From: Acidobacteriota bacterium
GTDB taxonomy: Bacteria > Acidobacteriota > UBA6911 > RPQK01 > G965248645
Length of the DNA: 64,000 bases
Assembly (NCBI GenBank): GCA_965248645.1
Contig: OZ252113.1
Span: 1,782,590 to 1,846,589 of the forward strand
Direction of reading: 5' to 3'
Within the stretch, counting starts at the first letter, position 1. Every line of letters begins with the position of its first letter. Shown in pieces: positions 3,940-59,036 of this stretch. Made by a program: the position numbers and the translations under genes. The notes under the pieces were generated by a model. It searched no databases. It worked only from the letters and a program-made list of their open reading frames with translations, and had not been told where the DNA came from.

Positions 3940-3962
3940 CGCTCGTCTCCTGTTCGCCGGGC

Positions 3963-4577: not shown

Positions 4578-5726
4578 TTGCCGAGCAGGAAATCTTTCAT
4601 GGTTCGAAGCCGTCGACGCCAAACTCTTCCGGGTGGCCGGTTGTCCGTTAACCTGGGTGCCGCTTTCGGACCAGCGATTCTGGTTTGGTTGGTCTTTTAC
4701 GGAGATGTTCTAGCCCAGTGCAACCAGATCCTATTTGCCTCCTCCGGCGATGGAATCAAGAACGATTACACACTTCTCTACCATGTCCTTTACGGGCGTT
4801 CAGCTCTCCTTTTCGAAGGGATGGGATATCCATACGGAGAGCACATTCTCTACACTGATAACCAACCGTTGTTGGCAATTACTCTGCAGTGGATTTCAAG
4901 GAATGTTATTGATCTGAGTCCGGTCTTGCTCGGTATAGTAAACGGCATTGTGCTTATCAGTGCCGTCTTGGCCGCCGCCGTTCTCTACGGGATTCTCCGT
5001 CACTATAGAAGGCCGATTTGGTATGCATGTTTGAGCGCAACGGGGATCGCCTTTCTTCCCCCCCCAGAGCCTTCTCGTTTTGGGCCATTACTCGCTTTCC
5101 TACTGCCCGGCAATTCCCCTCTGCTGGTTGCTGCTTCTGAAGTTCGGGCGGAGAAGATCCTGGATTATGGGAGGACTTCTGGCCTTGAACACCCTCTTTT
5201 GGACCGGATTTCATCCCTACTTCCTTCTCATACTTTCCTTTTTCTTGGTGGTGTTCTGGTGTTTTCAGCTGCTTCTTGGCAGTGGGGTTTCAAACGCAGT
5301 GATCTAGCACATTTTGCTTTTCAATTCGGTCTTCCGCTTTTGATGTTCGCCCTTTTCGTGGGTGTGACTGACCCTGATCTTGGTCAGCGGCCATCGCCCT
5401 TGGGCTATGGGCTCTATCGCGCGACACTACCTGGAATACTCCAGCCGTTTGTTTCTCCGCTGGGTCCAGGACTACTCGTTTGCCTCAATCAATTAGGAAC
5501 CTATGCGGAAGGGTTGTGCTGGGTGGGCGTGGGGGTTTCTGTGTTGTTGGTGCTGGGTTTGTCGACACGCCTCGTGGGTCGCCTTCGCCGACATGGCGTC
5601 AAGTACCTTGGGAGAGGTCTCAGGTTAAGCAACACGACTGTATTGTTGGTGGGAATAGCAGCTGTTGGTCTTTGCGATGGGTTATCCTCCTCGACTTGTC
5701 CCAGAATCGGTGCAGGACTGAGATAA
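4578..5726 (+). CDS. large polytopic membrane protein (possibly GT-C-like); reading frame uncertain around a poly-C tract
   Basis: The 382-aa ORF has many hydrophobic segments. The overlapping alternative-frame ORF 5080..5307 is also strongly transmembrane-like (WIMGGLLALNTLFWTGFHPYFLLILSFFLVVFWCF). A C8 homopolymer at 5058-5065 lies inside the gene. Confidence 0.4.
   Translation: MPSRKSFMVRSRRRQTLPGGRLSVNLGAAFGPAILVWLVFYGDVLAQCNQILFASSGDGIKNDYTLLYHVLYGRSALLFEGMGYPYGEHILYTDNQPLLAITLQWISRNVIDLSPVLLGIVNGIVLISAVLAAAVLYGILRHYRRPIWYACLSATGIAFLPPPEPSRFGPLLAFLLPGNSPLLVAASEVRAEKILDYGRTSGLEHPLLDRISSLLPSHTFLFLGGVLVFSAASWQWGFKRSDLAHFAFQFGLPLLMFALFVGVTDPDLGQRPSPLGYGLYRATLPGILQPFVSPLGPGLLVCLNQLGTYAEGLCWVGVGVSVLLVLGLSTRLVGRLRRHGVKYLGRGLRLSNTTVLLVGIAAVGLCDGLSSSTCPRIGAGLR
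5058..5065 (+). other. C8 homopolymeric tract inside the membrane-protein gene
   Basis: Read directly from the sequence. An alternative transmembrane-like frame begins about 15 bp downstream. Confidence 0.6.
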
Positions 5727-5731
5727 TTCCT

Positions 5732-6481
5732 GTGAAGCAGTTTCGCGCCGTAGGTCGGTTCACGTGGATCTTCTACTATTCGTTCACTGTATTCGCATTC
5801 CACTACGCCTACCTACTATATCGCGCACTCGCCATACGAGGGCATGTCCGCCGGGCCCATTTCTTGTTAGTCGTGCTCTTGACCCTCCAACTCACAGAAG
5901 GGTTTTTTCAAGCTCGTGAGGTCTCCAGGACTATTGCGGCTCAATCGGTTCCATGGGGCGCTGGCCGAGTGCAGAGGAGTGGTCCGCTCCCTGAGTGGAT
6001 CCAACTATTGGAGACCAAACCTTATCAGGCGATCCTTCCCTTGCCCTATTACCATGTAGGGTCAGTGGATTTTTCCTATGTGAGTTCGCCACGCTCCAAG
6101 GTATTTTCCATGCTCAGCTCTTTACAGACGGGGTTGTCCTTGATGGCCGTACAACTCAACCGGCTTCCGGACCACCGTAGGCAAGTCCAGATGTCTGTGG
6201 TGCGCCAGGACGATCGGCTTCCGGAATTAATGAAGGCCGTCGATGATCGGAACGTAATTCTGCTCCTCACGAGTCATGAACCCCTCAAACCGGAAGAGAA
6301 GGATCTGATCGAGCTCGGGAGGTATCTCAAAGGTGACGAGAACGTTGTCCTCTACGAACTTGACCCGGATACTTTGTTCGGCGCCCAGTCCTCCCGGCAG
6401 GGAAAAATCCGCCGCAGGATAACCAAGTCCTGTAGGGAAACACGGCCTGTGGCACTTCTACCCCGGAAGCTCATCCTCTGA
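5732..6481 (+). CDS. hypothetical protein; may be the C-terminal part of the preceding membrane protein (GTG start, or a frameshift fusion)
   Basis: In ORF 5480..6481 the N-terminal about 80 aa read like out-of-frame sequence. Plausible protein sequence begins after the stop of the upstream gene. An in-frame GTG sits at 5732, 6 nt after the upstream TAA. Confidence 0.3.
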   Translation: MKQFRAVGRFTWIFYYSFTVFAFHYAYLLYRALAIRGHVRRAHFLLVVLLTLQLTEGFFQAREVSRTIAAQSVPWGAGRVQRSGPLPEWIQLLETKPYQAILPLPYYHVGSVDFSYVSSPRSKVFSMLSSLQTGLSLMAVQLNRLPDHRRQVQMSVVRQDDRLPELMKAVDDRNVILLLTSHEPLKPEEKDLIELGRYLKGDENVVLYELDPDTLFGAQSSRQGKIRRRITKSCRETRPVALLPRKLIL

Positions 6482-6586: not shown

Positions 6587-7499
6587 ATGTCGGTTATGAG
6601 GAATCCTTTAGAGCTTTTTCAAAAGCTCGTTCCTTACATGTCGTATTGGAAGTTGCTGTCTTTGACTGGCCCTGGAGAATCGCTTCTTAATCCAAAATTA
6701 AGTAAGATTTTTGATCTGGTTCGGAAGAATTCCGACTGTACTTTGCTGATGACGACGAACGGAGTTTTGATTAACGAGCGATTGGCCGAGTTGTTCGTCG
6801 ATTATCAGGTTGATGAAGTATCTATTTCTTTGGATAGTCTCACTAAGAAAATCTTCGAAGAGTTGCGAGTGAATGGTCGCTTCGAGAGGGTCATTCACGG
6901 CATCGATATGCTAAATGAAGAAAAGAAAAGACGAAATAGTGACCGGCTCCGGATCAATCTGACCCCAACATTTATGCGACGGAACATTTCTGAATTACCC
7001 AGCTTTATGCCTTTTGCTAGAAGGAAGATGATCAGCGAAGTGAAGGCCTCCCCGGCACAGATCTATCGTCGCAGCTGGGTTGATGAGTCCTTGCTCCACT
7101 GCCCCCGCTCTAACCCGTAAGATGGCGCTGAAGGCGGAGAAAAAAGCCGAGGAGTTGGGGGTCAAGTTCGTCAATAATCTCAAAATGATCTATGTGGATC
7201 AAGGTCCAAAACTTCTAGGTCTAATGAGACGAAAGGAGGTGTTCGATTTTCCCACAGATCCCTCCGCCTGCATGAAACCTTGGACCAGCATCTACATTGA
7301 ACCAGATGGTGAAGTGCGACCTTGTTGCTATCTGAGCCCTGTGTACGGAAATCTTTACCAGAACGACTTTTTAGATCTATGGAATGGAGAAGGAGCTCAG
7401 GAGCTAAGACGAGCCATGGTGGAGAAGGACCTTCCTCGTTCTTGCCGTGAATGTTACGAGTACAACTGTCATGACGCCTCGATCATGATTCAAGTCTAG
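6587..7499 (+). pseudogene. radical SAM / SPASM-domain enzyme, 5-prime truncated (no CxxxCxxC cluster) and frameshifted near 7080-7120
   Basis: LSLTGPGESLLNP matches the GGE-type SAM-binding motif of radical SAM proteins. The second ORF carries a SPASM-like cysteine pattern (CMKPW..IEPDGEVRPCCYL..GNL....LW.......C..C). An in-frame stop lies immediately upstream of the ATG, and no Fe-S cysteine triad is present upstream in any frame. Confidence 0.55.
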
Positions 7500-18720: not shown

Positions 18721-20163
18721 CTAGGCGTGGCTATGCCCAACGCCAAAAAGCTTCTGGCCTGGCGTTTCACCAACCAGGGTAGAGGGGAACCATACTCCAC
18801 AATAACTTCCACATCTTCGACCCGGAGGGGGACTCACCAAACCTGTGGCCCTTCCATTCAGCACAAACTCCAGCAGGTTCTGGCCCCGACGGGGACGCAC
18901 CTTGCGCAAATGAAACTCCAGCCACTGACCATTATAGGGAGCGATAGGTGAGCCATAATCGCGCAGACAGGTCTCCTCGGCCAAGGACTTCCCATTGAGC
19001 AAGATCCTCAGCCGGTCGGCCGATACCAAATCGGTAATGTTGATTCGTAGCCGCACTTGGCGGATGCGCTCGGCAGTCCCTTCGATGTCGTCGGCGATGC
19101 GGAAAGCGATCTTGTGCGTGCTCCGGTCCGAGGCGGCGATCTCCAGCGGCAAGGAGGTCGGGTAGCCGACCAGTCCGGCGATCTTGAGGCTTCGCTTGAC
19201 CAAATAGTGTTTGTCGGCTTCCCGAACTAGATCCGGGTCGCCCAGCTCCGAGAGAATCCGGCGGGCAGTATCCCCCAGCGGCCACCGGAGAAACCAGCTG
19301 TACATACCATCGTCCCCTAGGGCCCAGTAGTTGGCCACTGCCGCGCGTATCATCTCCGGCGTTGCCCACTCTCGCGTGTGGAGTTCACGCTCCGCGCTGT
19401 GATGATAGGGCTGGATCATAGCGTAGACTGAGGTCTCGACCTGGTGAGCAGCCTCGATCAGCCCCAGTCGATGGGCATCTGGCTATCCACTAGCATGTAG
19501 CTGTAGACCAAAGGAACTACGTAGTCAATCAGGCCCTCACGCAGCCAGGTGCGCACGGTTTAGTCCCTTGGCTAGGTTGATGGCCTCGGTAGGATAGACC
19601 CGAGCCTCCACCTGGCCCGGTTTCCCTGGCCGGCTACGCACCATTTCCGAGACTTTCCTGATCCATTGGGTCATCACCGGTGTATAGGATTCGACGTCTT
19701 CCTCTCTGAAGTAAAATGGGCTACCGCCGGGGGCGGCGGCGAAGTCCAGCTCGACCCCTTCAGTTGCATACTTGCTGGCCAGCGCCTGGAGCACAGAAAA
19801 CTGATGGTCCCGTACCTCCGGATGAACGAAACCCCGCCCCCCCGACTTGAGCTGGTGGGCCGGGTCCATGCCAAGGTAGCCGCCCAGGCGCAAACTGGCG
19901 AAAAAATCCATGCCTTTGTCGTGTGCGCGGTCGATGAGGACTCGCAGCGGATCCATTCCTCGATCGATCAGGCTTTGCTGGTTGTGCCAGACGCGCCAAT
20001 AGGCTGCCTGGCGGAAAGCGGTTGAATCTCCTCCATATTTGAAGCGCTGGCCCACCTTTGAGGGATAAAAGAGACCGTCTGGACTTGCTACTCCGTAGGT
20101 AAAAGTGTGCACGGCGGTCCCCGCGGTTTCGTGTGCGGGACGCCAAGCGTCCTCGAGCTTCAT
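18721..20163 (-). pseudogene. GHL-like TIM-barrel hydrolase paralog, N-terminally truncated with at least two frameshifts (around 19420-19540)
   Basis: This is paralogous to 59861..61534 and 53381..54940: DRAHDKG vs DRAHEKG, GVELDF vs DGFELDL, AAVANYWALG vs AAACNYWAQG. The three coding pieces lie in three different frames, and the middle piece (TVRTWLREGLIDYVVPLVYSYMLVD) aligns to the paralog. The N-terminus lacks the signal peptide region. Confidence 0.6.
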
Positions 20164-21115
20164 CGGTGGCTCAAAACAAACAGATTTGTAGTTCCTCTCT
20201 GGACTCCTTTTGCTCGAGTTTCTTTAGTGGTGAGCCCTGCGGTGGCTACCGCAGGGGCTAGTTCCTGCATGAAGCTTCGCGTTGTAAAACTGATCACTGT
20301 CTCCGTGTGTGTGCTCCTAAGCGATTGGTAGTATTAGCAAAGCTCTCAGTTATAGAAGTGTCGGTTGCGGGCACCTCAGAACTGTTTTCTCGAGATACTG
20401 GGATCAGACCGGAGGAAGCCATTGCTGTTCATTTGGTGTTCCATTTGACAAATATGGTGATATTAGCTGTTGGGGCTTGCTGGACAAGGTCAAGGCGTGA
20501 GGAGGTAAGAGGTGTGCTGGGCACATTGTGGGTGATGTGCAATGTGAAGATTAGTCGGAATCTCCCTCTGCCTAGGGCTGGCGAGGGCAGGAGCTAATCT
20601 CTTTGTCGTTGCTGCTCCCCGCAACGCTGTGATATCGCGTTCATGCTCGCCTTATGACTTTAACGCGGTCGCACTCGGCAAAAACAGCATCGTATTTCCG
20701 AGATGGGACGCTTAGTTTTGAGTTCAGAGGATGTTTGCTCGTTTCCTTTGTAACGAGTGTTTGCTATCTTCAATCTGGGAGCCTGCTTCAGGTTTTCCTC
20801 CAACGGGCCAGCAGCCGTGCAACGAGGTCGATCGAAAGAGGGAGGAGCAGTGATAAAACTTGGCACTTTTCTTATGCCGATTCATCCGCCGAGGGCCCCA
20901 GATTCGGTGTTTCAATGAAAACATCTCAAAGGGGTTAGGGTACACACCCCTGTGTTCGAATATTATCCACTAAAACAGAGTTGTAGAGAACGGGAAGTCC
21001 TATTGTTAGGGTTCAAGGGAGGCCGTTGTGGTCTCGGTTGATTCTTGACAGACAGGGTGGGAGAGTGAACCTTCATTGAACCTACAGTCAACCCCAAATA
21101 GAGAGGAGACTTCCT

Positions 21116-23834: not shown

Positions 23835-24974
23835 TCATTGCCGCTGCCGGAATTTTTCTAGTGCTTTAAAATCGAGTACCACCCCATGGCCGGGACGATC
23901 AGGGGCAACTGCCTTACCGTCCTGCAATTGTAACTGGTTTTCCAAAAAACGCTCAAGGCCGAATCCATGCACTTCCAGGTAGGATGGGTTCGCGGTTCCT
24001 GCTAGCAAGTGTACATGGATGTCGTGAATTCCATGAGACGTGACTGGCAATCCCCTGGCATTGGCGAGCTGAGCCACGTGGAGCCAGGGAGTGATACCAC
24101 CAAGTGTGGCGGCATCCGGTTCTGGAAAGTGGACTTTTCCCCACTTCATGAGAGTCTCGAACTCATAGACACTATGAAGGTTCTCACCGCTTGCAATCGG
24201 AATTCCCCCTTCCCGGACAATCCGTGCATGACCTTGGATATCCTCGGGAATAGTGGGCTCTTCCAGCCAGTACAGATCAAACTTAGCCAGTGCGCGGGCT
24301 GCCTGGACCGCCTCGTCGACCTCCCAACGCATGTTCGCATCCACCATGAGTGGCACATCGGGACCAAGGAAATCACGCATTGCACCTACTCGCTCAATGT
24401 CTTCCGATAGACACCTTCTTCCGACCTTCATCTTGATTGCATGAAACCCCTTGGAGAGAAAAGTGCGTGTTTGGGAAAAGAGAGCTTCGATCGGAAGGTC
24501 GAGATCGATGCCTCCAGCGTAGGCCTGTACCTCGCGAGTGTTTCCACCGATTAACCGCCAGAGCGGTTGGCCTTCATGCTTACCCAGTAAGTCCCACAAC
24601 GCGATGTCGATAGCAGCCATGGCGAACGTGGTTATGCCGCCTCGACCTACGAAATGTAGGGCCACCACATCTTTTCCCAGAGCTTGTTGACGGCGGTGGG
24701 GTCTGCGCCCAGCAGCAGCGGTTCCAGGTCGGATGCGATCACTCTCCGAATGGCGCTAGCGCCAATGTTATGGACGGTGTAGGTGTAGCCTAGACCTTCC
24801 TGTCCAGCGGTATCGATGACCCGTACCACAATTAAACCGAAGACCGAGATTTCTCCATGGGTAGAGTCCGAAAGTGGGTTATCCAGTTGGTATGCGAAAA
24901 TGATCCGCGTGAAGTTCTGCGATCTCCAAGGTGGTCTCCTCTCCTGGTTCTTGACTGGAGTGAAAGGCGCACAT
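23835..24974 (-). pseudogene. mandelate racemase / muconate lactonizing enzyme family (enolase superfamily) gene with two frameshifts (near 24870 and 24655)
   Basis: Three consecutive frames on the minus strand each carry a consecutive part of an MR/MLE protein. They are MCAFHSSQEPGEETTLEIAELHADHFRIPTG, then ..GEISVFGLIVVRVIDTAGQEGLGYTY.., then the barrel domain ..AMAAIDIALWDLLGK... The reconstructed length is about 380 aa. Confidence 0.65.
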
Positions 24975-32903: not shown

Positions 32904-32989
32904 AACTCGATGCCAAATCCTTATCTAACTTGACGGAACTGTCAAGTTAATCTCTCCTGAGAATTGTCGCTACCTGTATATCGCGCTGC

Positions 32990-35959: not shown

Positions 35960-36016
35960 AAAGAGTTCTCGACACCAAGGAACGCTCGACGTCAGTAGCG
36001 TTTCGTTTCTGGCGCC

Positions 36017-38215: not shown

Positions 38216-38559
38216 GTTCCTCCCGACGCTCCAAACTCTTAATAAGGGATCCATAAGCTGCACGGAAAATTTTAGTTTGCATCCTGGGACACTGGATCAC
38301 GTTGGTATTTCGATCGGTATGCGGGAAGTGTTTTCACATGCTAAATCACGGGATACTGCACCATGGAAAAATGTGCTACCTCACGCGCTGTACGGCCTGA
38401 TGGTCTATGATGAGATACTATCGCACCATTGTCCGATCATTCTTGAAGTCAAAGATCAGGATACGGGGCGTGCCACTGCTAGAGCTCTACTGAAAATATA
38501 ATCAGTAGCCTTTTGAAACAGAGGCGCTGTCTGGGTTAGGGCTGGAGCCTCACCAGCGC

Positions 38560-38900
38560 TTTTAAGAGAACGTTTAGTCGCATCCTTGTCTCTTGGCGTT
38601 GGTGCGCAGACTACCGATGACTTTGTCGTGTTGATCCAGCACTCGCCAAGGCTAAGGGAATTAGCTGTGAATTTTGCTAAACAAGTGGTCCAGGTGCCGA
38701 AGTTTGTCGAGCCGACCCTGCCTCCGTTAGAGAACAGGCCTGTACGGTTGTCTAAAATTTGAAGATTAGCAGCGATCAGGTTCGTACGAGACGGTGATCC
38801 CATGCTCAGTAAGCAAGTGCTCACCGTCTCGAAAACTCAGTGCAAAGCGATAGTAAAGACAGACTGGGTTAGCGATGAGTTGCGACGGAGAACGACGACC
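38560..38900. repeat. diverged interspersed repeat, copy C (about 75% identity to 41190-41420 over the core; contains a perfect 11-bp hairpin stem CGAGACGGTGA/TCACCGTCTCG)
   Basis: Hand alignment gives AGGTTCGTACGAGACGGTGATCCCA..CAGTAAGCAAGTGCTCA..GTAAAGACAGACTG versus AGGTTCGTATGAGATGGTGATTCCA..CAGCAAGCAAGTCATCA..GTAAAGGCAGATG. Minus-strand ORFs begin MSTCLLSMGSPSRTNL and MMTCLLNLESPSHTNL. Confidence 0.45.
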
Positions 38901-38971
38901 TGAATGCTCTATGAAGACTTAGAGAAGTCACCGCAACCGTTTGAACCTACTTGCTATTTCTATCTGAACGA

Positions 38972-39282
38972 CTAAGCTTTCAGGCGTGCTCCGATCGATC
39001 TGATAATCACTGCAAGAGCGGCAGCATTGATCAGAGTAGAAACTCCGGCAAGAATATTGGTGATGTGTCCCCCAACAGCTGGTATATTGCTTAAAGCACC
39101 ATATACAGAGGACAAGACGAGAGCTCCAAGTAGCACACTGACCTTATCAGAGTCATCGGTGGGATAACCTAAGACTAAGCCGAGAATCGCTAGCACGAGG
39201 CCAGCATAGGGAATTGAAACCCCAACTCCAACGACCAGGCCAGAAGCAGACCCAAAATGAGAACAATTTTGGGGAAATTCAT
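38972..39282 (-). CDS. small hydrophobic membrane protein; frame ambiguous
   Basis: An AAGGAG Shine-Dalgarno sequence lies 6 nt upstream of an ATG at 39282 (MNFPKIVLILGLLL..). That frame hits a stop after 30 codons, while the long ORF 38972..39358 is in a neighbouring frame. This implies a frameshift or a short peptide. Confidence 0.3.
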
Positions 39283-39538
39283 TGTGAACTCCTTGTTTAA
39301 TCAACCGTTGACAAGCAACAAGGAAACGATTGTGACTGATAGCCATAAGGAATTGCAACTCTAAGCATGCAACTTTTTTGGAATCATGCTAAGAGGCCTG
39401 GAGATAAGGACCCTTGTCTCAGCGCTGGCAGCCAGCACTGAAGAAGTCTTCAGTGCAAATGGATCCGAGGGTTTGCTCTGCGAAAAGGTGGTAGAAAAGC
39501 GCGTAATCCAACGTTAGGGTCTGCAGAGATTACAATCA

Positions 39539-40566
39539 ATGGGGTATCCACTGGACTCAGGTAACCACAACATCTTGTGGTTGGGCTCACGGGGCCTCGG
39601 CGTCCCAGTCGGCGACGATCGATCGATACGGCGTTGGGTCCACGGCGACTGCCTGCTGCACAAGGCGGTAGAAGAGTTTTCCCCGGCTGCGTGAGTTGCG
39701 CCGGTTGAAGCGGAACACAAACTCGTCGAGGTAGTAGTCCAGATGCTCGTGGCTAACCGCGCCTTGGTGCGTGCCCAGCAGCCAGCGCTTGAGCAACGAG
39801 ATCGCTTGGTGCACCCTCGGCAATAATTCCGAGGCCTGCTTGCGGCGGCCCGACAGAAAGACGGTGCGATGCTGGTAGCCCTTCTTCTCCAGCGGCTCGT
39901 AGCCCAGCCAGCCGTCGGTGTGCACCAAGCTTCCCGGCTCGACCGACTCCTCCACGAAGGGCATCAAACTGGCCGCCGATGCGTTCCGCAAGCGCTGCAT
40001 GCGGATCCGTCCTAGCCCGCGGCCTCTCCCTTCCGCGGCTATTTAAATCAATGCTTTACGCTCGTTCTGCCGGCCGCTAACACCCTCTTACTCAGCGCCC
40101 CAATAGGTCTCATCGACCTCGACTACGCCCGCCAATCGCTCCCGCCCCGGACGCACCATCGCTCGCCGCAGCTTGTGCATCCAGGTCCACGCAGTTTGAT
40201 ATCTGCCCAACCCGAGAACGCGCTGCAGACCCAGCGCGCTGACCCCGTTCTTTTGCGAAGTGACGTGCCAGATCGCCCGGAACCACAGCCGCAGCGGCTT
40301 ACGTGTGTCTTGGAAGATCGTGCCCGAGGTCACCGACGTCTGCCGCCCGCAGCGAGCGCATTCGAACCACACTTTGCGCACCGGCCAAGCCCGCTCATGC
40401 CCGCATCCCGGACAGCGGAAACCCTCCGGCCAGCGCAACGCGGACAGATAGTCGCGACAGGCCTCTTCGCTGGCGAAGCGTACCTCGAACTTGAGCAGGT
40501 CGCGTGGATAATCCTCCACGAAGGCACATACTACATCTTGGGGTCACCTGAGTCAAGTGGATACCA
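39539..40566 (-). mobile_element. IS1595-family insertion sequence, copy 1 (about 1.03 kb), flanked by an ATTACAATCA direct repeat
   Basis: Imperfect terminal inverted repeats are GGTATCCACTGGACTCAGGTAACC and GGTATCCACTTGACTCAGGTGACC. The element is near-identical to a second copy at 52353-53390. TTACAATCA occurs immediately outside both ends (8 bp is typical for the IS1595 family). Boundaries are uncertain by about 10 bp, because TACAA.CAATGG also precedes copy 2. Confidence 0.75.
39587..40519 (-). pseudogene. IS1595-family (ISXO2-like) transposase interrupted by in-frame stop codons
   Basis: The N-terminal zinc-ribbon part is CPGCGHERAW..FECARCG, and the C-terminal DDE part is ..SLVHTDGWLGY... 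The two ORFs are in the same frame and separated by two TAA codons. The linker looks shortened relative to what I recall of ISXO2-type transposases. Confidence 0.7.
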
Positions 40567-40769
40567 AATTACAATCATTCGTAACAAGGAGGCCAAGGGA
40601 AACCAACCTCCGGAATCAATATGAGGGATGTCGGTTAATACGAGGTTGGCTGGGTAGTAGGGAAAACGCCCTTATATGTCGTGCGGAACAACAATTGAGG
40701 CCAGTATGGCATTCTGTCCTAAATGTGGAGTATCTGAGCCCGCCGTGGCATGTGGAAAGGGTCCTTAAA

Positions 40770-41120
40770 GTGATTTGTCCTCAATGTAAGGCTGAATATA
40801 GGTCAGGGTTTACTGAATGCTCGGATTGTTAGGTGCCGTTGGTGGCAGAATTGCCAATGGAAGGGGAGTCACCAAGAGATCTAGAGCTACAGCAGAAGCG
40901 GCTCGGGCAAGGCCTGAATCTTGTCAGAGTCTTCGAAACGGAGAATCCTACAATCATTATGGTGGCGAAATCCCTATTGGAGGATGCTGGTATCGAATAC
41001 TTCTCATCAGGTGAACAGCTTCCATTTGGATTTAACCCTTTATCTGGATCTCTCGTGATCGGGGTTCGGCACGAGGAAGCGGAGGAAGCCAGAGAATTGC
41101 TGAAGAATCTGTCATGTTAA
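40770..41120 (+). pseudogene. zinc-ribbon + DUF2007-like small protein with an in-frame TAG at 40830-40832
   Basis: In one frame the sequence reads ..VICPQCKAEYRSGFTECSDC-TAG-VPLVAELP..VRVFETENPTIIMVAKSLLEDAGIEYF... The zinc-ribbon CPxC..CxxC-G-VPLV consensus expects Gly where the TAG sits. A GGAAAGGG Shine-Dalgarno sequence precedes the GTG at 40770. An additional upstream zinc knuckle (MAFCPKCGV) lies in another frame. Confidence 0.45.
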
Positions 41121-42762: not shown

Positions 42763-43449
42763 AATCTACCTCGCTCTGTTTGATGGTCTGCCTTCATCTG
42801 CCAGGCTCGAGAAGAGATCGTAACTCATCGCAGTTCTCGGGCAGGCTAAAACAATGCCCCTTATAGGCAATGTAGTTGAGGTCGACGAGCTCCGCTTCGC
42901 TCAGCAGGTCAATATAGCTGATAATCGTCATGTAAAGTTCGGATCTGATTTCCTGTGACCTCCTGTGATGAATGAACGAAATCTATCATCCCTACTGACC
43001 TTGTGTCCAAGATTTTCTTGTGATCTTTTAGGTGAAAAAGCCTCTGAATCGCTGGATTATCTAGGCGCTTTTCCGAAAACTGATCGGCAGAGCGACTCTC
43101 TGAGGGAACTGGGTAAGAAACACTTGTTTTTGGGCTGTTACAGTCCTGTCTTCTAACTGTCGCAGAATCAGCTATTTCGGCAAGGCCATTCAGGAGGGTT
43201 TTGGACAAACTATAATAAGACCGTCTGTATCGTTCCCTAACCGAAGCGTCGATATTGCTATACACTCTGAGTGCACGTTCAAGAAGATTCAGATCAATCG
43301 CGCCATTTCTTGGCCTGATTTTGTTGCTAAAGGTGCTTGCCAGCAGGCCCCCAGGATAGCTTGATGTACTCCTTGTTAGAAATAGAAAGATGAGGTACTT
43401 TGGGGTATAATAAAAAAATCTTCGAACCTTCAATAGGGGAAGCATAGTC

Positions 43450-46329
43450 ATGAAAGGACGCTTCGCTTTTTTCTTCAGCTTGGGTGTGCTTGCCACAGGG
43501 CTTTCAGGGAAAACATCAGCAGAAAACACGAGTTCTTCATTACCCACATTCGAAAAAGAGATTCTGCCCATCTTCGAGAAGAGCTGTCTGGCCTGTCACA
43601 GTGCCCAGAGTCCTCAGAGCGGCCTGGTTCTGGAGACGGTAGAGTCTCTCTTCCAAGGGGGAACAGTCAGTGGACCGGCAGTAATCGCTGGAGAGAGCAG
43701 CCGGAGTCCGCTGCTGCTCTATCTGAAGGGAGAGAAAGAGCCCAGAATGCCGCTGGACGCTCCTCTGCCGGAAGCGGAGATCACCCTGATTGCCCGCTGG
43801 ATAGACCAGCTCAAACCGGCTGGTCAGAAGGAAGTTGAGACCCAACTGGCTGGTGGAATAACCTCTGATCAAGACTTTGAAGAGTCAATCCGGCCCATCC
43901 TAGAGAAAAATTGCTTTTCTTGCCACAACGCCGAGACTCACCGCAGCGGTTTGGTACTCGAGACGGTCGAGTCGCTGCTTAAGGGAGGCGGTGCCGATGG
44001 TCCAGCTATTGTGGCGGGGAAAAGTAGGGAGAGTCCCCTGATTCTTCATCTGCGGGGAGACAAAGCCCCGCGCATGCCGCTGGAAGGCGTTCCTTTGGCC
44101 GAGGAGAAAATCACCCGGATTGCCAGCTGGATCGACGGTCTGGAGGTCTCGACCATAGCCCAGGTCAAGCCGAAACTGGACTGGCCCTGGATCAAACTCG
44201 AGCGTCCGGATGTTCCGCAGGTCCAACACCAGGAATGGGTAACGAATCCCATCGACGCTTTTATTTTAGCCAAGCTGGAAACCAAGAGCCTAGAGCCGGC
44301 ACCAGCGGTCTCCAAACGGGCTTTGCTGCGCCGCATCTCCTTCGATCTGACGGGTCTACCGCCTACACCGGAGGAGATGCAGCGATTCCTGCAGGATTCC
44401 TCGCCGGATGCTTATGAGCGGCAGATCGACCGGCTACTGGCCAGCCCTCACTACGGAGAACGCTGGGCACGGCACTGGTTAGATTTAGTGCGTTATGCCG
44501 ACACTAAGGGAGGATATTACGATCCGATCTACCCTCATATCTGGCGCTACCGGGACTACGTCATCCGGGCCTTCAATCAGGGTCGACCCTACGACCGCTT
44601 CATCCGGGAACAAATCGCAGGGGACAGCTTCCGCCCCTATGGCGCGGAAGGGAGAATTGCCTTGGGCTTCATGCGCGTGGGAGCACAAACTGAATCGGGA
44701 GGTCGCCGGGAGATCTTGGATGACCTGGTGGGCACCACCGGATCGGTGTTCCTGGGGATGACTGTGGCCTGTGCCCGCTGTCACGATCACAAGTTTGATC
44801 CCATTCCCCAGCGAGACTACTACCGGATGGAGGCCTTCTTTACCCCGATGAGCATTACGGGGCCGACCGCCCTACCCTTCACCGAATACGAGCTGCCCCA
44901 TCAAGAGCCAGAGAAATGGGAGAAAAAGGCCGAAGCCTGGCAAGCACTCTATTCAAAGTATTATGCGAGAGCAAAAGCGATTGTAGCTCAGTTCAAGGAA
45001 CGGGTGAGAAGAGAACGCTCCTTCCTATCCCCTGAGGACCTTAAGGACCGGGTGGTCTACGGAGACGTTTACGCCTCCTACCGAGTCAGCGCTTTCGAAT
45101 TACGCGAAGCCATGCAGAAGGGCCTGCTGTTTAGTAAGGCGGAACGGGATCTGTACAATCTCGCCCGCCGTTGTGTCTCCCAGGGTAGCCCCATGCATCC
45201 CGATCTATATGAGCCCAAGGCCTACTCGGCTTCCGACCCAGGAGGCAAGGATCTTCCCTCCACTCCTGACACCTACGTCCTGAAGGTGGGAAATCCAAAG
45301 GCTAGAGGAGAGGCTGTGGGACCAGGTTTTTTGAGTTCTGCGATCGGGAATTCCGACCCGGTCGACCTGACGGGAGGCGGTAGCCACCGCAAGTTGCTGG
45401 CCGAGTGGATCTCCAGTCCCGAGAATCCTCTAACGGCTCGGGTGATGGTCAACCGGATCTGGCAGCATCATTTTGGCGAAGGGTTGGTGCGCACGCCCAG
45501 CGACTTTGGCCAGAACGGTTCGGGAACCCTGCATCGGGAATTGATCGACTGGCTAGCCTCGGAGTTCATCGAGCAGGGGTGGAACATCCAGGCCATGCAC
45601 CGGCTCATACTCGGCTCCAGTCTCTATCGCCAATCGATGTACCACCCTCGGGACCAGGAGTTTGAAACGATCGACAGTGCCAATCGCTATCTTTGGAAGA
45701 TGGGGCCGATTCGTCTCGAGGCGGAGAGCATTCGCGACAGTATCCTAGCGGTTAGCGGAGAGCTGAATCGGGATATGGGTGGCCCTGCGGTTTTTCCCGT
45801 CATCGATGATGAACTACAGAAGCGAGCGCTCACTATCTGGGAAGCCTCTCCCCAGCAGGAAAGGAACCGTAGAAGCATTTACATGATGCAGAAGCGAGCC
45901 ACCCCGACCCCTTGGATGGCGGTCTTTGATGGCCCTAATCTGAACCAGAGCTGCGAGGTACGCGGGGTCACCACGGTGACGCCGCAGGTCTTTGCCTTGT
46001 TCAACAGTGAGTTCGTCCACCGGCAGAGCCGCCAGATGGCCGCTCGCATCCGTCGCCAAGTGGGAGCGGATCCTGAAAGACAGATCGAGCGGGCCTTTGA
46101 ACTGGCCCTTCAGCGTTTGCCCACCCAGGGAGAAAAAGAGGAGTTTCGAGCGCGGTTGGGAACCTCTGCAGCGGTGCCCCGACCAGACATGGCCTTCTTG
46201 GGCAAGCCGGAAGGTGCACCTATGCCCATCTCCCTAACGATAGCAGGAGACCAACCCGGGAGTCCGGGATCGCTGGCTGATCTATGCCTGGTTTTGTTTA
46301 ACGTCAACGAATTCATTTTCCTAGAATAG
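43450..46329 (+). CDS. PSD1-type protein number 2 (two PSCyt CxxCH-like domains + DUF1549 + DUF1553) without an adjacent DUF1501 partner
   Basis: The motifs CLACHS and CFSCHN occur in duplicated N-terminal modules. The C-terminal conserved block is LCLVLFNVNEFIFLE. The length is 959 aa. Confidence 0.85.
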   Translation: MKGRFAFFFSLGVLATGLSGKTSAENTSSSLPTFEKEILPIFEKSCLACHSAQSPQSGLVLETVESLFQGGTVSGPAVIAGESSRSPLLLYLKGEKEPRMPLDAPLPEAEITLIARWIDQLKPAGQKEVETQLAGGITSDQDFEESIRPILEKNCFSCHNAETHRSGLVLETVESLLKGGGADGPAIVAGKSRESPLILHLRGDKAPRMPLEGVPLAEEKITRIASWIDGLEVSTIAQVKPKLDWPWIKLERPDVPQVQHQEWVTNPIDAFILAKLETKSLEPAPAVSKRALLRRISFDLTGLPPTPEEMQRFLQDSSPDAYERQIDRLLASPHYGERWARHWLDLVRYADTKGGYYDPIYPHIWRYRDYVIRAFNQGRPYDRFIREQIAGDSFRPYGAEGRIALGFMRVGAQTESGGRREILDDLVGTTGSVFLGMTVACARCHDHKFDPIPQRDYYRMEAFFTPMSITGPTALPFTEYELPHQEPEKWEKKAEAWQALYSKYYARAKAIVAQFKERVRRERSFLSPEDLKDRVVYGDVYASYRVSAFELREAMQKGLLFSKAERDLYNLARRCVSQGSPMHPDLYEPKAYSASDPGGKDLPSTPDTYVLKVGNPKARGEAVGPGFLSSAIGNSDPVDLTGGGSHRKLLAEWISSPENPLTARVMVNRIWQHHFGEGLVRTPSDFGQNGSGTLHRELIDWLASEFIEQGWNIQAMHRLILGSSLYRQSMYHPRDQEFETIDSANRYLWKMGPIRLEAESIRDSILAVSGELNRDMGGPAVFPVIDDELQKRALTIWEASPQQERNRRSIYMMQKRATPTPWMAVFDGPNLNQSCEVRGVTTVTPQVFALFNSEFVHRQSRQMAARIRRQVGADPERQIERAFELALQRLPTQGEKEEFRARLGTSAAVPRPDMAFLGKPEGAPMPISLTIAGDQPGSPGSLADLCLVLFNVNEFIFLE

Positions 46330-46485
46330 GACAGTTTACTCAAGGAGACAGCCTCATGAGAAAGAACCCCTTTGATGTCATGCTGATAAGTTCGACCAGA
46401 CTTCCCCGTTTCAGAGTGACGGCGTGGAGCGACCTCAAGCATTGGTGTTCCGTAGTATGGATATAATAATACATACTACGAACAT

Positions 46486-47417: not shown

Positions 47418-48596
47418 ATGAAGGACACCATCTGCGAGCTGCTCGCCTTTTATCTTACTCTGGTGATCTTTTGGTTTAGCGGTTGTTCACAAACTGCAGA
47501 GCTCGAGCAGAAGCAATCTAGTTACGAAGAAATACTTACGCGTGCCGAGCAAGGCGATGCCGAGGCCCAATGCAACCTGGGGAACATGTATCGCGATGGC
47601 AAAGGGGTTTCTCAAGACGATCAAGAAGCAGTCAAGTGGCACCGCAAGGCGAGCGGGGAAGGCTATGCCAAAGCTCAAAATAACCTGGGGAACATGTATC
47701 GCGATGGCAAAGGGGTTTCTCAGGACGACCAAGAAGCAGTCAAGTGGTACCGAAAGGCAGCTGAGCAAGGCTATGCCAAAGCTCAAAATAACCTGGGGAA
47801 CATGTACCGGGAGGGCTACGGTGTTCCTCAAGATGGCCAAGAGGCAGTCAACTGGTACCGCTATGCTGCCGAACAAGGTTATGTCGACGCCCAATATAAT
47901 CTGGGGCTTATGTACTACTACGAACGAGAGGGAGTCAGCCAGGACTACCAAAAAGCACTCAAGTGGTATCGAAAGGCCGTCGAGCAGGGAGATGCCGCCG
48001 CGGAATATGCTCTGGGGGTCATGTATGCCGAGGGCCAAGGCGTTGCTCAGGACTACCAAGAAGTAGCTAAGTGGTATCGCAAGGCCGCGAATCGAGGTCA
48101 TGCAACTGCCCAATATAATCTGGGGGTCATGTATGCCGAGGGCCAAGGCGTTGCCCAGGACTACCAAGAGGCCGTTAAGTGGTACCATTACGCTGCCGAG
48201 CAAGGCGATGCCAAGGCCCAATATGCTCTAGGGGTCATGTACGCCAAGAAGGCAGCTGAGCAAGGCGATGCTAAGGCCCAAAATAACCTGGGGAACATGT
48301 ACCTCGATGGTCACGGCATCCCTCAGGATGGTCAAGAAGCAGTGAAGTGGTACCGCAAGGCCGCCGAGCAAGGTGATCCCGATGCCCAGAGGCATCTGGG
48401 GGTCATGTATGCCATGGGCCAAGGTGTCCCACAGGACGACATACAGGCTCACATGTGGTGCAACCTAGCAGCTACCAACTTAACTGGAGAGGCAAGAGAA
48501 AAGGCCGTTGCATTACGAGACTTTCGAGCTGAACAGATGACTCGGGATCAGATCGTTGAGGCTGAGCGGCTAGCCCGGGAGTGGAAACCAAAATAA
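47418..48596 (+). CDS. Sel1-like repeat (SLR/TPR-like) protein, about 9 tandem 36-aa repeats
   Basis: The unit AQNNLGNMYRDGKGVSQDDQEAVKWYRKAAEQGYAK recurs. The N-terminus is hydrophobic. Confidence 0.8.
   Translation: MKDTICELLAFYLTLVIFWFSGCSQTAELEQKQSSYEEILTRAEQGDAEAQCNLGNMYRDGKGVSQDDQEAVKWHRKASGEGYAKAQNNLGNMYRDGKGVSQDDQEAVKWYRKAAEQGYAKAQNNLGNMYREGYGVPQDGQEAVNWYRYAAEQGYVDAQYNLGLMYYYEREGVSQDYQKALKWYRKAVEQGDAAAEYALGVMYAEGQGVAQDYQEVAKWYRKAANRGHATAQYNLGVMYAEGQGVAQDYQEAVKWYHYAAEQGDAKAQYALGVMYAKKAAEQGDAKAQNNLGNMYLDGHGIPQDGQEAVKWYRKAAEQGDPDAQRHLGVMYAMGQGVPQDDIQAHMWCNLAATNLTGEAREKAVALRDFRAEQMTRDQIVEAERLAREWKPK
47574..48480 (+). repeat. tandem 108-bp coding repeats (Sel1 units); the first two units (47574-47789) are nearly identical at the DNA level
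   Basis: Direct inspection shows a period of 108 bp, starting with AACCTGGGGAACATGTA. Confidence 0.7.
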
Positions 48597-51168: not shown

Positions 51169-52388
51169 ATGAAGCGCACAGCGGACGTGGTCATTGTTGG
51201 TGGAGGGGTCACCGGGCTGAGTACGGCCTGGAATCTGAAGGAGAACGGGGTTGACCGCGTTGTTGTGCTCGAGCGGCACCGGATCGGTTCCGGCCAGTCG
51301 GGTCGTGCGGCTGGCATTGTCCGTACACTTGTACCTCACCCCTTGGTAGCGTCTTGGCAGTATCAGTCACAACAATTCTTCAATACGTTCGTGGAACGGA
51401 CTGGACTTTCGATCGAGGTCAATCAGGTTGGCTACGTTCTCATCGCAGGTTGTGCCGAGGCAAAAGGGCTGGGGCAAGCGGTTGAAGTGAGCCGGCAGCT
51501 GGGCACCAATTGTGATCACATTAGCGTGGATGAAGCTGGCCAAGTACAACCGGGTATCCAGCAGGGCGCCGAGCTGGCATATGCGTTTGAACCAGGGGCG
51601 ATTTATGTAGACCCGATGCCAGCCACTCATGCCATAGCGCTGGCAGCACGGCGGGCTGGCGTAGAGATTCGGGAGGGGTGTGGCGTACAAAAGTGCTGCT
51701 GGACAGATCCCAGGTCGCAGGTGTTTCCACTCGTGAAGGCCCTTGGTTTGCACCCGCGGTAATGATTGCAACTGCCGCCTGGAGCCGAAGCCAACTGCAG
51801 CAGGTGGGACTCAAGTTACCTGTCTATCCGCATCGAGCAGAGATGGCCTTTTTCCATGTTCCGCTGGAGAAAGAGTTGCGTCTGATCCGTATTCTCTCTG
51901 ACACAAGATCACAACTTTACTTGCGTCCGGAGGGGCGACTGCAGATGTTTGTCGGTTGGCGGGAAGGAGACCTGGTCCGGCAGCCGGAAGACTGTGTGCC
52001 CGAAAATCCGGACGATTATCGGGAGACCGTCCATTTTGATCGGCTCGTTCAGATGCATAATCGACTATCCCAGACATTGCCTTTCATGGCGCGAGGATTC
52101 GCCAATCGCAGCTATGCGTGTGTGTACGACTACACCCCGGACGGGCAGCCGATCCTTGATGCCGCAGGGTCTACAGGGTTGTATTCCGCAATTGGTTTCA
52201 GCGGTGGAGGTTTCTCTACCGCTCCCTGCGTCGGTAGGACCATGGCAAAATTTATCGCGAGTGGGAAAAAACCACAAGAGATCGAGTGGCTGCGACTCAG
52301 TCGCTTCGCTGAGGGAGACCTAATTCACTGGAACAACCTGGGCCTTCTTCAAAATACAACCAATGGGGTATCCACTGGACTCAGGTAA
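51169..52388 (+). pseudogene. FAD-dependent oxidoreductase (DAO family, glycine/sarcosine oxidase-like) with a frameshift near 51700-51760; the 3-prime end abuts IS1595 copy 2
   Basis: The N-terminal FAD motif is VVIVGGGVTGLSTAW. Two overlapping ORFs in different frames together cover about 394 aa. The C-terminal codons run into the IS terminal repeat. Confidence 0.7.
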
Positions 52389-53390
52389 CCACAACATCTT
52401 GTGGTTGGGCTCACGGGGCCTCGGCGTCCCAGTCGGCGACGATCGATCGATACGGCGTTGGGTCCACGGCGACTGCCTGCTGCACAAGGCGGTAGAAGAG
52501 TTTTCCCCGGCTGCGTGAGTTGCGCCGGTTGAAGCGGAACACAAACTCGTCGAGGTAGTAGTCCAGATGCTCGTGGCTAACCGCGCCTTGGTGCGTGCCC
52601 AGCAGCCAGCGCTTGAGCAACGAGATCGCTTGGTGCACCCTCGGCAATAATTCCGAGGCCTGCTTGCGGCGGCCCGACAGAAAGACGATGCGATGCTGGT
52701 AGCCCTTCTTCTCCAGCGGCTCGTAGCCCAGCCAGCCGTCGGTGTGCACCAAGCTTCCCGGCTCGACCGACTCCTCCACGAAGGGCATCAAACTGGTCGC
52801 CGATGCGTTCCGCAAGCGCTGCATGCGGATCCGTCCTAGCCCGCGGCCTCTCTCTTCCGCGGATACTTAAATCAATTCTTTACGCTCGGTCTGCCGGCCG
52901 CTCACACCCTCTTCCTCAGCGCCCCAATAGGTCTCATCGACCTCGACTACGCCCGCCAATCGCTCCCGCCCCGGACGCACCATCGCTCGCCGCAGCTTGT
53001 GCATCCAGGTCCACGCAGTTCGATAGCTGCCCAACCCGAGAACGCGCTGCAGACCCAGCGCGCTGACCCCGTTCTTTTGCGAAGTGACGTGCCAGATCGC
53101 CCGGAACCACAGCCGCAGCGGCTTACGTGTGTCTTGGAAGATCGTGCCCGAGGTCACCGACGTCTGCCGCCCGCAGCGAGCGCATTCGAACCACACTTTG
53201 CGCATCGGCCAAGCCCACTCATACCCGCATCCCGGACAGCGGAAACCCTCCGGCCAGCGCAACGCGGACAGATAGTCGCGACAGGCCTCTTCGCTGGCGA
53301 AGCGTACCTAGAACTCGAGCAGGTCGCGTGGATAATCCTCCACGAAGGCACATACTACATCTTGGGGTCACCTGAGTCAAGTGGATACCA
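52353..53390 (-). mobile_element. IS1595-family insertion sequence, copy 2; no flanking direct repeat detectable
   Basis: The copy is about 99% identical to copy 1, with about a 10-bp indel. The left flank is AAAATACAACCA and the right flank is GTTATCCGATCA. Confidence 0.75.
52411..53262 (-). pseudogene. IS1595-family transposase, copy 2 (shared in-frame TAA plus an extra nonsense change removing the N-terminus)
   Basis: The ORFs 52867..53262 and 52411..52824 are the same as in copy 1. Copy 2 reads GAA where copy 1 has its first TAA, but carries CTA/TAG at about 53308. Confidence 0.7.
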
Positions 53391-56317: not shown

Positions 56318-57193
56318 TCACTCTGTCGCCAGGTTGGCGTTCTCGGAGGCAAGTTCCAGGAGGCAGTTTTCACCCAGTGGCTCGATCGGTGTAAAGTCAC
56401 GATGGGCGATCCATTCCGGTCGCTTAAACTGTCGGATGTGGTTGTCCACGTGACAAAGGCTCAGATACACGATCACGCGGTCCCACGGACTGATGTTGGG
56501 CGCTGATGCGTGCACCATGTTCGAGTGAAACAATAGGACAGCTCCCGGTTTTCCCTTGGGCGCGACTATGCCGCCCTGGTTCGCCAGACGGCTTACCGAT
56601 TCCTTATTGAGTGTCCAAAGCGGATAAGACGTCGTTAGTGTATCGTGGCCCGCCTCGATCACACCCTGCTTGTGGCTGCGTGGGATAAGGTAGAGGGGAC
56701 CGTTGAATTCAGTCACCTCGTCCAGAAACAGCGCGATGTTCATCGCTAGCGGTTTCGGCATCTGATCGTCGCGCGCCCAGGTACCGTAGTCCTGGTGCCA
56801 CTGCCAGACATCACCGCTGAAGGCGGCCTTCCCGTTGATCTTGTACTGGTGTATATATACCGACCCGTTGAGGATTTGCATGATGGGTTTGATTAGGTGC
56901 GGATGGCGCCCCAGGCGGCCGAACGCCTTGTTATAGGTATGTGCAGCGAAGGCCGTGCGAACTGCTTCCCCGTCGTTTTCACGCCAGACCTCGTCACGAT
57001 GCATAGCGAAAATCTTCGGTAATTGGCCCTTGAGGACTTGGATCTCGTCCTGGCCGAACAGATCCGGTAGAAACAGCCAGCCTTCGGTGTCAAACTGCTC
57101 CAGCTGTGCCTTTCTCAGTTTCATGAAACGGTACTTATTTGTTGCCACCCTCTGATTATAAGGGAGCGGCGCTACAATTGTGACTGATCTCAC
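56318..57193 (-). CDS. phytanoyl-CoA dioxygenase (PhyH) family protein
   Basis: The motif is WHQDYGTW .. HSNMVHASAPN. Confidence 0.75.
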   Translation of the reverse strand: MRSVTIVAPLPYNQRVATNKYRFMKLRKAQLEQFDTEGWLFLPDLFGQDEIQVLKGQLPKIFAMHRDEVWRENDGEAVRTAFAAHTYNKAFGRLGRHPHLIKPIMQILNGSVYIHQYKINGKAAFSGDVWQWHQDYGTWARDDQMPKPLAMNIALFLDEVTEFNGPLYLIPRSHKQGVIEAGHDTLTTSYPLWTLNKESVSRLANQGGIVAPKGKPGAVLLFHSNMVHASAPNISPWDRVIVYLSLCHVDNHIRQFKRPEWIAHRDFTPIEPLGENCLLELASENANLATE

Positions 57194-57708
57194 CCAACTG
57201 TTCGCTCCCCATTAGGATACTGCGTTCGCGCTACTTCCAACTCTCCCCTGTGGACGTTTCCTGGTCGCAGTGTGCAACTTCGTAATCTGCGAACTTGTTG
57301 AAACAAAAAGGGGATGGTAGTAACTGTATCCGAAATAGCCGTTATACACAGCGGTTTCTTGGACAAACGGAGCGAAGGCCTTAATGCGAATACTCGATGA
57401 TCATTGGTGTACGCATACTTAACTGGGCCTCGATCTCTTCGCTAAGCCTCGGCAACCCTTTTCTGGGAGATCGATGAAGGCGCCAACAGCGTGGTTGACT
57501 TTGGACGGGAGGATTCGGACAAAGACGAATTCCTAAAGATTCCTGGTTGGAGCCGTACCGTGTCGAATCCAGCGAATCTCACTGATCATGTACTCACACT
57601 CTCCGGCCTTAACTCCAGCACCAGTTACCAGTACCAAGTGGCTTCAACCGATTCGCAGGGAAATGGCCACTCTACCCGTGGGAAGTGTCGTCCCCTAGCT
57701 ACCAGATA

Positions 57709-59036
57709 ATGAAGAAGGCAATTTTTGTCAATCCAAGTTGGGATCGATACGTTAGCCGGCGTGGCACACGGTATAACCGTCATTGGCCTCCTCTAGACCT
57801 CTTAAACTGTGCCGCGATACTGGAGGAGCATGGCTTTCGATGCGTGGTTTATAACCAGCGGATCGAGGACCAATGTGAGGTCCAGGTGGAGGACGAGGAC
57901 ATTGTGTTCGTCACCTCCTCTACACTGGATCGCTGGCAATGTCCGAACCTGGACCTGGAACTATTTGCGCATCGCATCACGCCCTTTCCGGAGGATCGCA
58001 CATATGTTCTTGGAGCACATGGGACCATGGATCCGACTTATGTAGCTAAAACACTTGGTAAGGCTGGGTTAATCCGTGAAGAGCCTGAAATGGCTGTGCT
58101 TCAGATCGCCCTGGGAGAGGATAAACAGGCCATCTCCGGCTTAACCTATCTCGACAAAGGTCAAGTGGTTTCCAATCCTGTTAAGACTCCCCTGCCTCTG
58201 GACCAGTTGGCCGCTCCCGCCTACCATCAAATCGATATCAGCCGCTACGGTTATGAACTTCTTGGAAGTGACTTCGCACTGTTGGAGACTTCGCGGGGCT
58301 GTCCTCATTCATGTAGCTATTGTTACCTGCAGGTATGTCCAAATACCGCTTGAAGTCTCCGCAGCGTGTCGTTGAAGAGGTTCGCACACTGCTCTCGACC
58401 ACACCCACGTGCAATATCTATTTCATCGACCTTGAATTCGCCATTCATCATCGTCACTGTGAAGCAGTGCTGGATGCTCTGCTAGCTTCGGGGTTGAAAT
58501 CCCACTGGTGCTGCCAAACTCGGGCTGACTCGGTGAATTTGGACCTACTACGAAAAATGAAGCGAGCTGGCTGCCGGCTTGTGCACTATGGTGTTGAGAC
58601 TGGCTCGGAGCGGGTTCTGGGGATGGTGAACAAGTATCTTGAGCTGGAGCAAATTCATCGAGCAATTCACCTCACCCGAAAGGCTGGCTTGAACTCGGCC
58701 TGCTTTTTCATGCTGGGCTTTCTGACGGAAACTGAGGCGGAAATCCGCCAGACTATACGCTTTTCCATAGAATTGAATCCCACGTACGCTTCTTTTCATT
58801 TGGCTACACCCTATCCGGGCACCAGTATGTACCGCAACTTTCAAGAGCAACGCGACAGTCAATTCATTCAGGAAACGTACCAACAGGCCCTACCTTTGCC
58901 TAAGTTGAAGGCGCTTCAGCGCAAAGTATATTTAGAATATTACTTACGACCTGCCTATCTCCTTTCGCGCTTTTGGACCAGTCCCTGGGAAAGCTGGCAA
59001 CAAGTTCGTCTGTTTCTGAATTTTGTTCTTAACTAG
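57709..59036 (+). pseudogene. B12-binding-domain radical SAM protein with a frameshift near 58320-58350
   Basis: The radical SAM triad SRGCPHSCSYCY is present. The downstream frame continues with ..KYRLKSPQRVVEEV.. and an Fe-S/radical SAM C-terminal region (..GVETGSERVL..). The N-terminal domain is of Rossmann/B12-binding type. Confidence 0.6.

Follow-up and report, generated by a model that had tools for sequence, protein, structure and literature searches.

Strain-level pseudogenization of accessory genes alongside recent IS3 activity in a 64-kb window of a Planctomycetota-like genome

Why should at least eight genes in a single 64-kb stretch of bacterial DNA each have to be repaired, by a frameshift or by reading through a stop codon, before a normal protein appears? 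The stretch in question (the window; 64,000 nucleotides of contig OZ252113.1, with a GC content of ~52%) had been interpreted in a preliminary description as a region of accessory-gene decay, possibly accompanied by expansion of insertion sequences (ISs) under relaxed selection, with indel-prone sequencing as the alternative. Our analysis supports decay through the recurrence of lesions in a second strain, the mixture of lesion types and the clustering of lesions in few genes. The non-essential genes of the window are very probably undergoing genuine, ongoing mutational inactivation. We refer to the source organism as Planctomycetota-like on the basis of two PSCyt1/PSCyt2/PSD1 genes and one DUF1501 gene carried in the window, a set that we take to be associated with Planctomycetota. 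Other genes in the window encode MaeB, CysH, a DnaJ-like protein, an acyl-CoA dehydrogenase, radical SAM enzymes, glycosidase-like proteins, PhyH dioxygenases and a Sel1-repeat protein. With TGA, TAG and TAA terminating 11, 8 and 6 of the 25 intact genes, respectively, the window uses the standard genetic code.

A sister strain, reached through an exact look-up of MaeB, provided the decisive comparison. Its sequence lies on a contig of 1,976,958 bp labelled 25x (ctg836451_25x_l; ENA assembly ERZ25067264) from another sample, and low-coverage contigs of the sister population are held in ENA assembly ERZ25072076. We recovered the sister sequence stepwise along the 25x contig, where it corresponds to window positions 4303-31765 and 40243-62214; the ~60 kb that was read covers seven of the eight flagged loci. 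Identity between window and 25x sister is 99.0-99.6%, a few divergent patches excepted. The proteins of the window itself are encoded on a separate contig of 3,761,457 bp, and the two assemblies are therefore independent. We found no paper citing the ENA assembly accessions, and exact-protein look-ups with seven window proteins gave no useful match.

The comparison with a relative, which the preliminary description had called for, revealed the same lesion in both strains at five of the eight loci and other lesions at two. Identical in the sister are both shifts in the polytopic membrane protein gene, two shifts in the GHL10-like gene, the first shift in the MR/MLE enolase-superfamily gene, the TAG in the zinc-ribbon/DUF2007 gene and the shift in the B12-binding radical SAM gene. 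The radical SAM/SPASM and DAO-type FAD oxidoreductase genes are dead in both strains through different lesions, and the sister has an intact version of none of the genes broken in the window. The 25x sister has broken copies of four genes whose window copies are intact (AstE/AspA-like, GH116, creatininase and PhyH dioxygenase). In the AstE gene, 10 non-synonymous changes stand against 1 synonymous change between the strains.

All eight loci described as disrupted proved to be so, and homologues or Pfam coordinates fix the lesions to within a few bases (Table 1). The membrane protein gene, correctly described as interrupted, needs two +1 shifts to be restored. A tblastn search with a homologue of 574 amino acids (P0362) placed residues 16-265, 337-355 and 355-568 in frames 3, 1 and 2, and the repaired product of 626 amino acids aligns to residues 16-568 of this homologue; homologues as a group measure 557-780 amino acids. 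Pfam does not recognize the protein even once it is repaired, so the family assignment rests on the full-length homologues. The sister's copy is labelled DUF6311 in the collection's precomputed hits. The sole indel between the two strains in this gene is an in-frame GGG, a 3-bp length polymorphism at 5049-5056 where the window has G8 and the sister G11.

Table 1. Genes broken in the window or in its sister strain, and mobile elements, by window position
Feature	Position	Strand	Lesion or character
Polytopic membrane protein pseudogene	4599..6481	+	two +1 shifts, ~5655-5662 and 5718-5720
rSAM/SPASM (radical SAM/SPASM) remnant	6587..7499	+	210-bp deletion at 6597/6598; +1 in C-run 7102-7106
GHL10-like pseudogene	18721..20163	-	+1 at 19548-19567; -1 in G-run 19453-19472; T->CC at 18827-18829
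MR/MLE enolase-superfamily pseudogene	23835..24929	-	+1 at ~24876-24896; A of CAC codon lost at 24660/1
Small membrane protein	38972..39282	-	-1 frameshift at ~39228-39246
Zinc-ribbon/DUF2007 gene	40752..41120	+	in-frame TAG at 40830-40832
DAO-type FAD oxidoreductase	51169..52388	+	-1 in A-run 51689-51692
B12-binding radical SAM gene	57709..59036	+	one net -1 shift between 58328 and 58343
AstE/AspA-like	21821		-1 in sister, lesion also in 3x contig; intact in window
GH116	29911, 30501, 30965		indels in sister, called as 531 + 132 + 158 amino acids; intact in window
Creatininase	55707		+A in sister; intact in window
PhyH dioxygenase	57002		-1 in sister; intact in window
DUF1501 remnant	46356..46379	+	8 codons (MRKNPFDV); partner of PSCyt/PSD1 gene at 43450-46329
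IS1595-family copy A	39531..40566	-	TAA 40043-40045 (common with B); private TAA 40088-40090
IS1595-family copy B	52355..53390	-	TAA 52867-52869 (common with A); private TAG 53309-53311
IS3-family copy A	3036..4307	-	appears intact; orfA/orfB joined by GGGAAAC -1 slippery site
IS3-family copy B	62214..63485	+	99% identical to copy A, inverted
IS256/Mutator-type transposase fragment	63408..63914	-	Pfam positions 74-218/379; adjoins end of IS3 copy B

The radical SAM/SPASM gene, correctly listed as interrupted, has one C too many in the run of 7102-7106; what had been missed is a 210-bp deletion that took the start codon and the CX3CX2C motif. Correspondingly, the Pfam Radical_SAM match begins at model position 52, the first 51 positions being absent. 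The sister retains these 210 bp, including the start codon and CNVRCGFC, but carries an in-frame TAA at codon 34 that is present in two contigs, L001 and L002. For the GHL10-like gene, the two shifts reported earlier are both present, together with a third lesion close to the 3′ end. The +1 and -1 shifts compensate one another in frame and are common to the sister sequences L001, L006 and L008; the 35-codon stretch between them (VRTWLREGLIDYVVPLVY...) is out of frame, and the T->CC change is private to the window. The region comprising the N-terminal part of this gene and the sequence upstream (19500-20500) differs from the sister by 57 single-nucleotide polymorphisms (5.7%, against a background of ~0.4%), a 1-kb patch that looks like a recombination import rather than decay in place.

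Both shifts claimed for the MR/MLE gene could be located by the reading frames of its homologues. Its N-terminus spans three reading-frame segments, and homologues read ...HFRVPLD... and ...KMWWHLHFVGRGG... across the two junctions. The second shift, at 24660/1, is private to the window, and the sister product of 331 amino acids reads WWHLHF over this site; an intact orthologue (P0122) has 364 amino acids and is 79% identical. In the DAO-type oxidoreductase of the window, Pfam DAO positions 1-175 and 179-352 fall in different frames, and homologues, which measure 390-406 amino acids, switch frame between 51687 and 51693, at the CAAAAG of 51688-51693. The 25x sister has deletions of 12, 8, 1 and 146 bp in this gene, the last of which takes out the A-run site of the window.

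In the B12-binding radical SAM gene the frame switches directly after CPHSCSYC (CX3CX2C), and the repaired protein of 442 amino acids aligns end to end with homologues of 440-443 amino acids. The 25x sister has the identical shift site and, at 57950, an additional +T. The idea that this gene and the DAO gene were strain-specific was dropped, because cluster look-ups revealed fragments of the sister's copies as short cluster representatives. The stop codon reported in the zinc-ribbon/DUF2007 gene is where it was said to be, and recurs in both the 3x contig and the 25x contig. Nearby, an open reading frame (ORF) of 168 amino acids split by a +G at 41454 was considered and set aside as an intergenic indel, because this ORF matches no family, appears to be non-coding and lies antisense to DUF2007, which it overlaps. 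For the small membrane protein, three metagenome homologues (57-63% identical) start MNFGKIALILGL or MDIGRIAFLVGL and match the frame-0 MNFPKIVLILGLLLA of the window, whose ATG at 39282 stands behind an AAGGAG ribosome-binding site in another frame than the rest of the gene. This locus falls in a segment that is absent from the sister.

The DAO, MR/MLE, B12-binding radical SAM and membrane proteins have undamaged orthologues of full length in other sequences, which implies an ancestral function, and homologues of the small membrane protein were found as noted above. The housekeeping genes listed in the preliminary description as undamaged (maeB, cysH, dnaJ-like, acyl-CoA dehydrogenase and metE-like) do have full-length Pfam matches. 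The closest relatives of the MetE-like protein in a GTDB genome scan are 60-71% identical, and its gene lies, like the small membrane protein, in the segment absent from the sister.

The number and distribution of lesions point in the same direction. Eight of the 36 non-IS genes in the window are broken, an excess over assumed pseudogene baselines for typical free-living bacteria of 5% (P = 3e-4) or 10% (P = 0.02). Twelve lesions fall in only 7 of the 36 genes, where random placement would hit ~10 (P = 0.018), and four genes carry two or three lesions each. The lesions comprise 1-bp indels, nonsense substitutions (three of them in the IS1595 copies) and deletions of 8, 12, 19, 146 and 210 bp. 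Several single-base changes lie outside homopolymers: a lone A flanked by C's is missing at 24661, and GCAGCTG and CCAACTGG are the contexts of +1 insertions. Each of the three window-private frameshifts (7102, 18829 and 24661) lies in a gene that has a common lesion or is dead in the sister, and the remaining 1-2-bp differences between window and sister are all intergenic or in frame.

A comparable loss affects the DUF1501 partner of a PSCyt/PSD1 gene. Both the window and the 25x contig have it cut short, whereas it continues as a 489-amino-acid gene in a 3x haplotype, L009 (ERZ25072076 ctg228197_3x_l). That contig has a 333-bp deletion in PhyH (window 27530-27862) and a 91-bp deletion (43269-43359); at least three haplotypes co-exist, because L009 combines these private deletions with an intact DUF1501 gene. 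The PSCyt/PSD1 gene itself (959 amino acids) is intact, its partner being lost; it differs from the sister by 19 non-synonymous and 4 synonymous changes and by an in-frame replaced patch at 45173-45187. Judged from these sequence differences, it may be functionally dead despite its open frame.

We next turn to the mobile elements. Two IS3-family copies of 1272 nucleotides each, with 12 substitutions and no indels between them, bracket 58 kb in inverted orientation. Each consists of an orfA of 92 amino acids and an orfB of 289 amino acids in the -1 frame, with GGGAAAC at the end of orfA and TG...CA terminal repeats; the position of this heptamer identifies the two-ORF layout as a normal programmed -1 frameshift, not damage. 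Homology with the sister ends at the inner edges of the two copies, at 4303 (copy A) and 62214 (copy B), and both copies are absent there in the sister. That homology ends exactly at both inner edges implies an IS3-associated rearrangement in the window strain. A simple inversion between the copies does not fit, as the outer flanks of the sister do not match those of the window. Two features of recent IS activity, near-identical IS3 copies and sites that differ between strains, are both observed, and IS3 is presumably active at present. The earlier suggestion of IS expansion under relaxed selection thus stands for recent IS3 activity, seen as 99%-identical copies at synteny breakpoints; its genome-wide part is a possibility only. 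Collectively, these observations give good support to strain-level pseudogenization with recent IS3 activity.

Both IS1595-family transposases had been listed among the damaged genes, and both are, through in-frame stop codons rather than frameshifts: each transposase lies in a single frame interrupted by substitution-derived stops. The two copies are 98.4% identical without gaps. The sister's orthologue of copy B is free of the stops found in the window, but has a 19-bp deletion. Eight of the 17 differences between copies A and B fall within 62 bp around their common TAA (40029-40090 and 52853-52914), and the sister's orthologous IS1595 copy encodes Ala at the codon of this TAA; the cluster may mark a local hotspot or a tract of gene conversion. 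The IS256/Mutator-type fragment is, from its position alone, likely to have been interrupted by the IS3 insertion, one IS having entered another. Locally, five IS elements or fragments of three families lie within 64 kb.

The segment that separates the two strains measures 8.5 kb (31766-40242) and is present in the window and absent in the sister. It holds the MetE-like gene, a PSCyt-897/DUF1501 pair, unknown ORFs, the small membrane protein and most of IS1595 copy A. In its place the sister has ~1.9 kb of IS1595-like pieces (L008 13241-15187).

Genuine decay very probably accounts for these observations as follows. Ordinary mutation inactivates non-essential genes through 1-bp indels (some by slippage in short runs, others not), nonsense changes, deletions of 8-333 bp and IS-associated rearrangement. 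Dead genes go on gathering lesions, which is why several genes have two or three of them. Older lesions are common to close strains and younger ones differ, each strain having lost genes that the other keeps. The cause is probably weak purifying selection on accessory functions.

Some observations weigh against this reading. Selection measured between the strains gives it little help: the ratio of non-synonymous to synonymous divergence (pN/pS) stands at 0.43 where both strains have the gene intact, at 0.64 where both have lost it and at 0.65 where the sister alone has a dead copy. The contrast is in the expected direction but weak, being significant when the 959-amino-acid PSCyt gene is excluded (intact-gene pN/pS ~0.28; Fisher P = 0.03) and lost when all genes are counted (P = 0.32), with small counts in either case; moreover, between strains so little diverged, a high pN/pS does not by itself speak for relaxed selection. 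The scope is 64 kb only, in a region rich in accessory genes. Four of ~11 single-base shifts lie in runs of at least 4 bases (P = 0.003 against 5.9% of bases). A 3x contig of the sister population shows three 1-bp homopolymer deletions relative to the 25x contig (19729, 21756 and 22874), so that data of this kind can contain such errors when depth is low. Four lesions, the three private to the window and the shift in the small membrane protein, are supported by the window assembly alone, and the evidence as a whole comes from assembled sequence.

The alternative that survives best accepts that the decay is real and makes it local: a dispensable, IS-bounded region would be decaying in a chromosome otherwise under normal selection, with no IS expansion. 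We regard this as a serious possibility that falls somewhat short of an even chance. The broken genes are accessory in kind (radical SAM enzymes, glycosidase-like proteins and oxidoreductases) and core-like genes are intact; the 58-kb block lies between inverted IS3 copies at which synteny with the sister stops; and the 8.5-kb segment shows presence/absence variation between strains. Set against these points are the presence of three IS families within 64 kb, the pN/pS of 0.43 even in intact genes (a weak point, as short divergence inflates the value) and additional split genes in the sister just outside the block. In the 25x sister, TauD, a luciferase-like monooxygenase and glutamate dehydrogenase are each called in two pieces there (L001 19378-20342; L010 17419-18515 and 19028-20371), which hints that decay extends beyond the window.

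At the other extreme, the window may sample a Planctomycetota lineage early in reductive, possibly host-associated evolution, in which strains that are 99.0-99.9% identical differ in their pseudogenes and IS3 is reshuffling the chromosome. This is a rather doubtful proposition, and any genome reduction would be at most early-stage, because the source contig measures 3.76 Mb. Were it true, the strains would record gene death as a natural time series at strain resolution. Pseudogene accumulation and IS proliferation under relaxed selection or niche restriction are known from Mycobacterium leprae, Sodalis glossinidius, Shigella and Yersinia pestis. The window resembles these genomes in its frameshifts, nonsense mutations and small deletions in non-essential genes, in its multi-hit dead genes, in the different pseudogene sets of close strains and in the near-identical ISs at rearrangement breakpoints; it differs from them in being a 64-kb sample of a Planctomycetota-like genome only. 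The phenomenon is familiar; what is new is to see it, resolved by strain, in a Planctomycetota-like genome, and to our knowledge such decay has rarely been described in Planctomycetota. Co-existing strains here put gene inactivations in chronological order, with common lesions older and private lesions younger. If the pattern holds genome-wide, it would indicate weak purifying selection in a planctomycete, owing for example to a small population or a restricted niche; if it does not, the window is an ordinary decaying accessory region.

Much less probable is that indel-prone long-read sequencing or assembly produced most of the frameshifts in genes that are really intact, which we consider very unlikely. 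Long-read assemblies reportedly contain homopolymer indels that split ORFs, as described by Watson and Warr in 2019. The window shares with such artefacts same-strand half-ORFs that cover one Pfam domain and some breaks in runs of 4-5 bases (C5 at 7102, G4 near 19465, A4 at 51689 and C5 at 18829). The related contigs have names in the style of a long-read metagenome assembler, and the three homopolymer deletions mentioned above are private to a 3x contig that is otherwise 99.9% identical to the 25x contig. Homopolymer context does not decide the matter, because slippage mutation and long-read error both predict it.

Recurrence, lesion type and lesion distribution decide it. Five loci carry an identical lesion in the independent 25x assembly, two more are dead there in other ways and none is intact, and the sequencing-error alternative is thereby rejected for seven of the eight loci. 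The damage also includes substitution-derived stops and deletions of 8-210 bp, neither of which homopolymer miscalling can yield; the lesions cluster in few genes, and a further ~35 kb of the window's coding sequence, some of it in genes of 2.3-2.9 kb, contains no frameshift. Even at low coverage, a 2x contig shows no indels relative to the 25x contig in 10.4 kb. The breaks in GH116, first seen among the indels of the 3x contig, were confirmed at 25x; the 3x-private indels at 19729, 21756 and 22874, considered as marks of extra pseudogenes, are absent at 25x, may be low-coverage errors and were not counted. At most four lesions (7102, 18829, 24661 and ~39235) could be window-specific errors, of which only that at ~39235 would alter the status of a gene. 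In practice, the split ORFs should be labelled as pseudogenes and not 'repaired', and they give no ground for discarding the assembly as low quality.

Programmed recoding, by which ribosomal frameshifting or a TAG read as pyrrolysine or by readthrough would keep the interrupted genes expressed, is scarcely credible: the canonical GGGAAAC heptamer belongs to orfA-orfB fusion transposases of the IS3 family and fits the IS3 copies only and none of the eight flagged loci; the compensating +1/-1 pairs that restore the original frame in the GHL10-like and MR/MLE genes enclose out-of-frame segments containing stop codons; the broken genes have no slippery motifs at their shift sites, their lesions vary between strains that are more than 99% identical and their orthologues in other lineages are single ORFs. 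The zinc-ribbon/DUF2007 gene has a TAG kept in both strains and an undamaged downstream ORF; recoding of this codon was nevertheless rejected, as TAG is an ordinary terminator (8 of 25 intact genes) and no tRNA gene or Rfam element was found in the 64-kb window.

Finally, the Sel1-repeat protein (47418-48596) is built of 108-nucleotide repeat units and lies in a stretch of lower GC content (0.477). This region is only ~96% identical to the sister and contains many indels, which suggests variation in repeat number or sequence.

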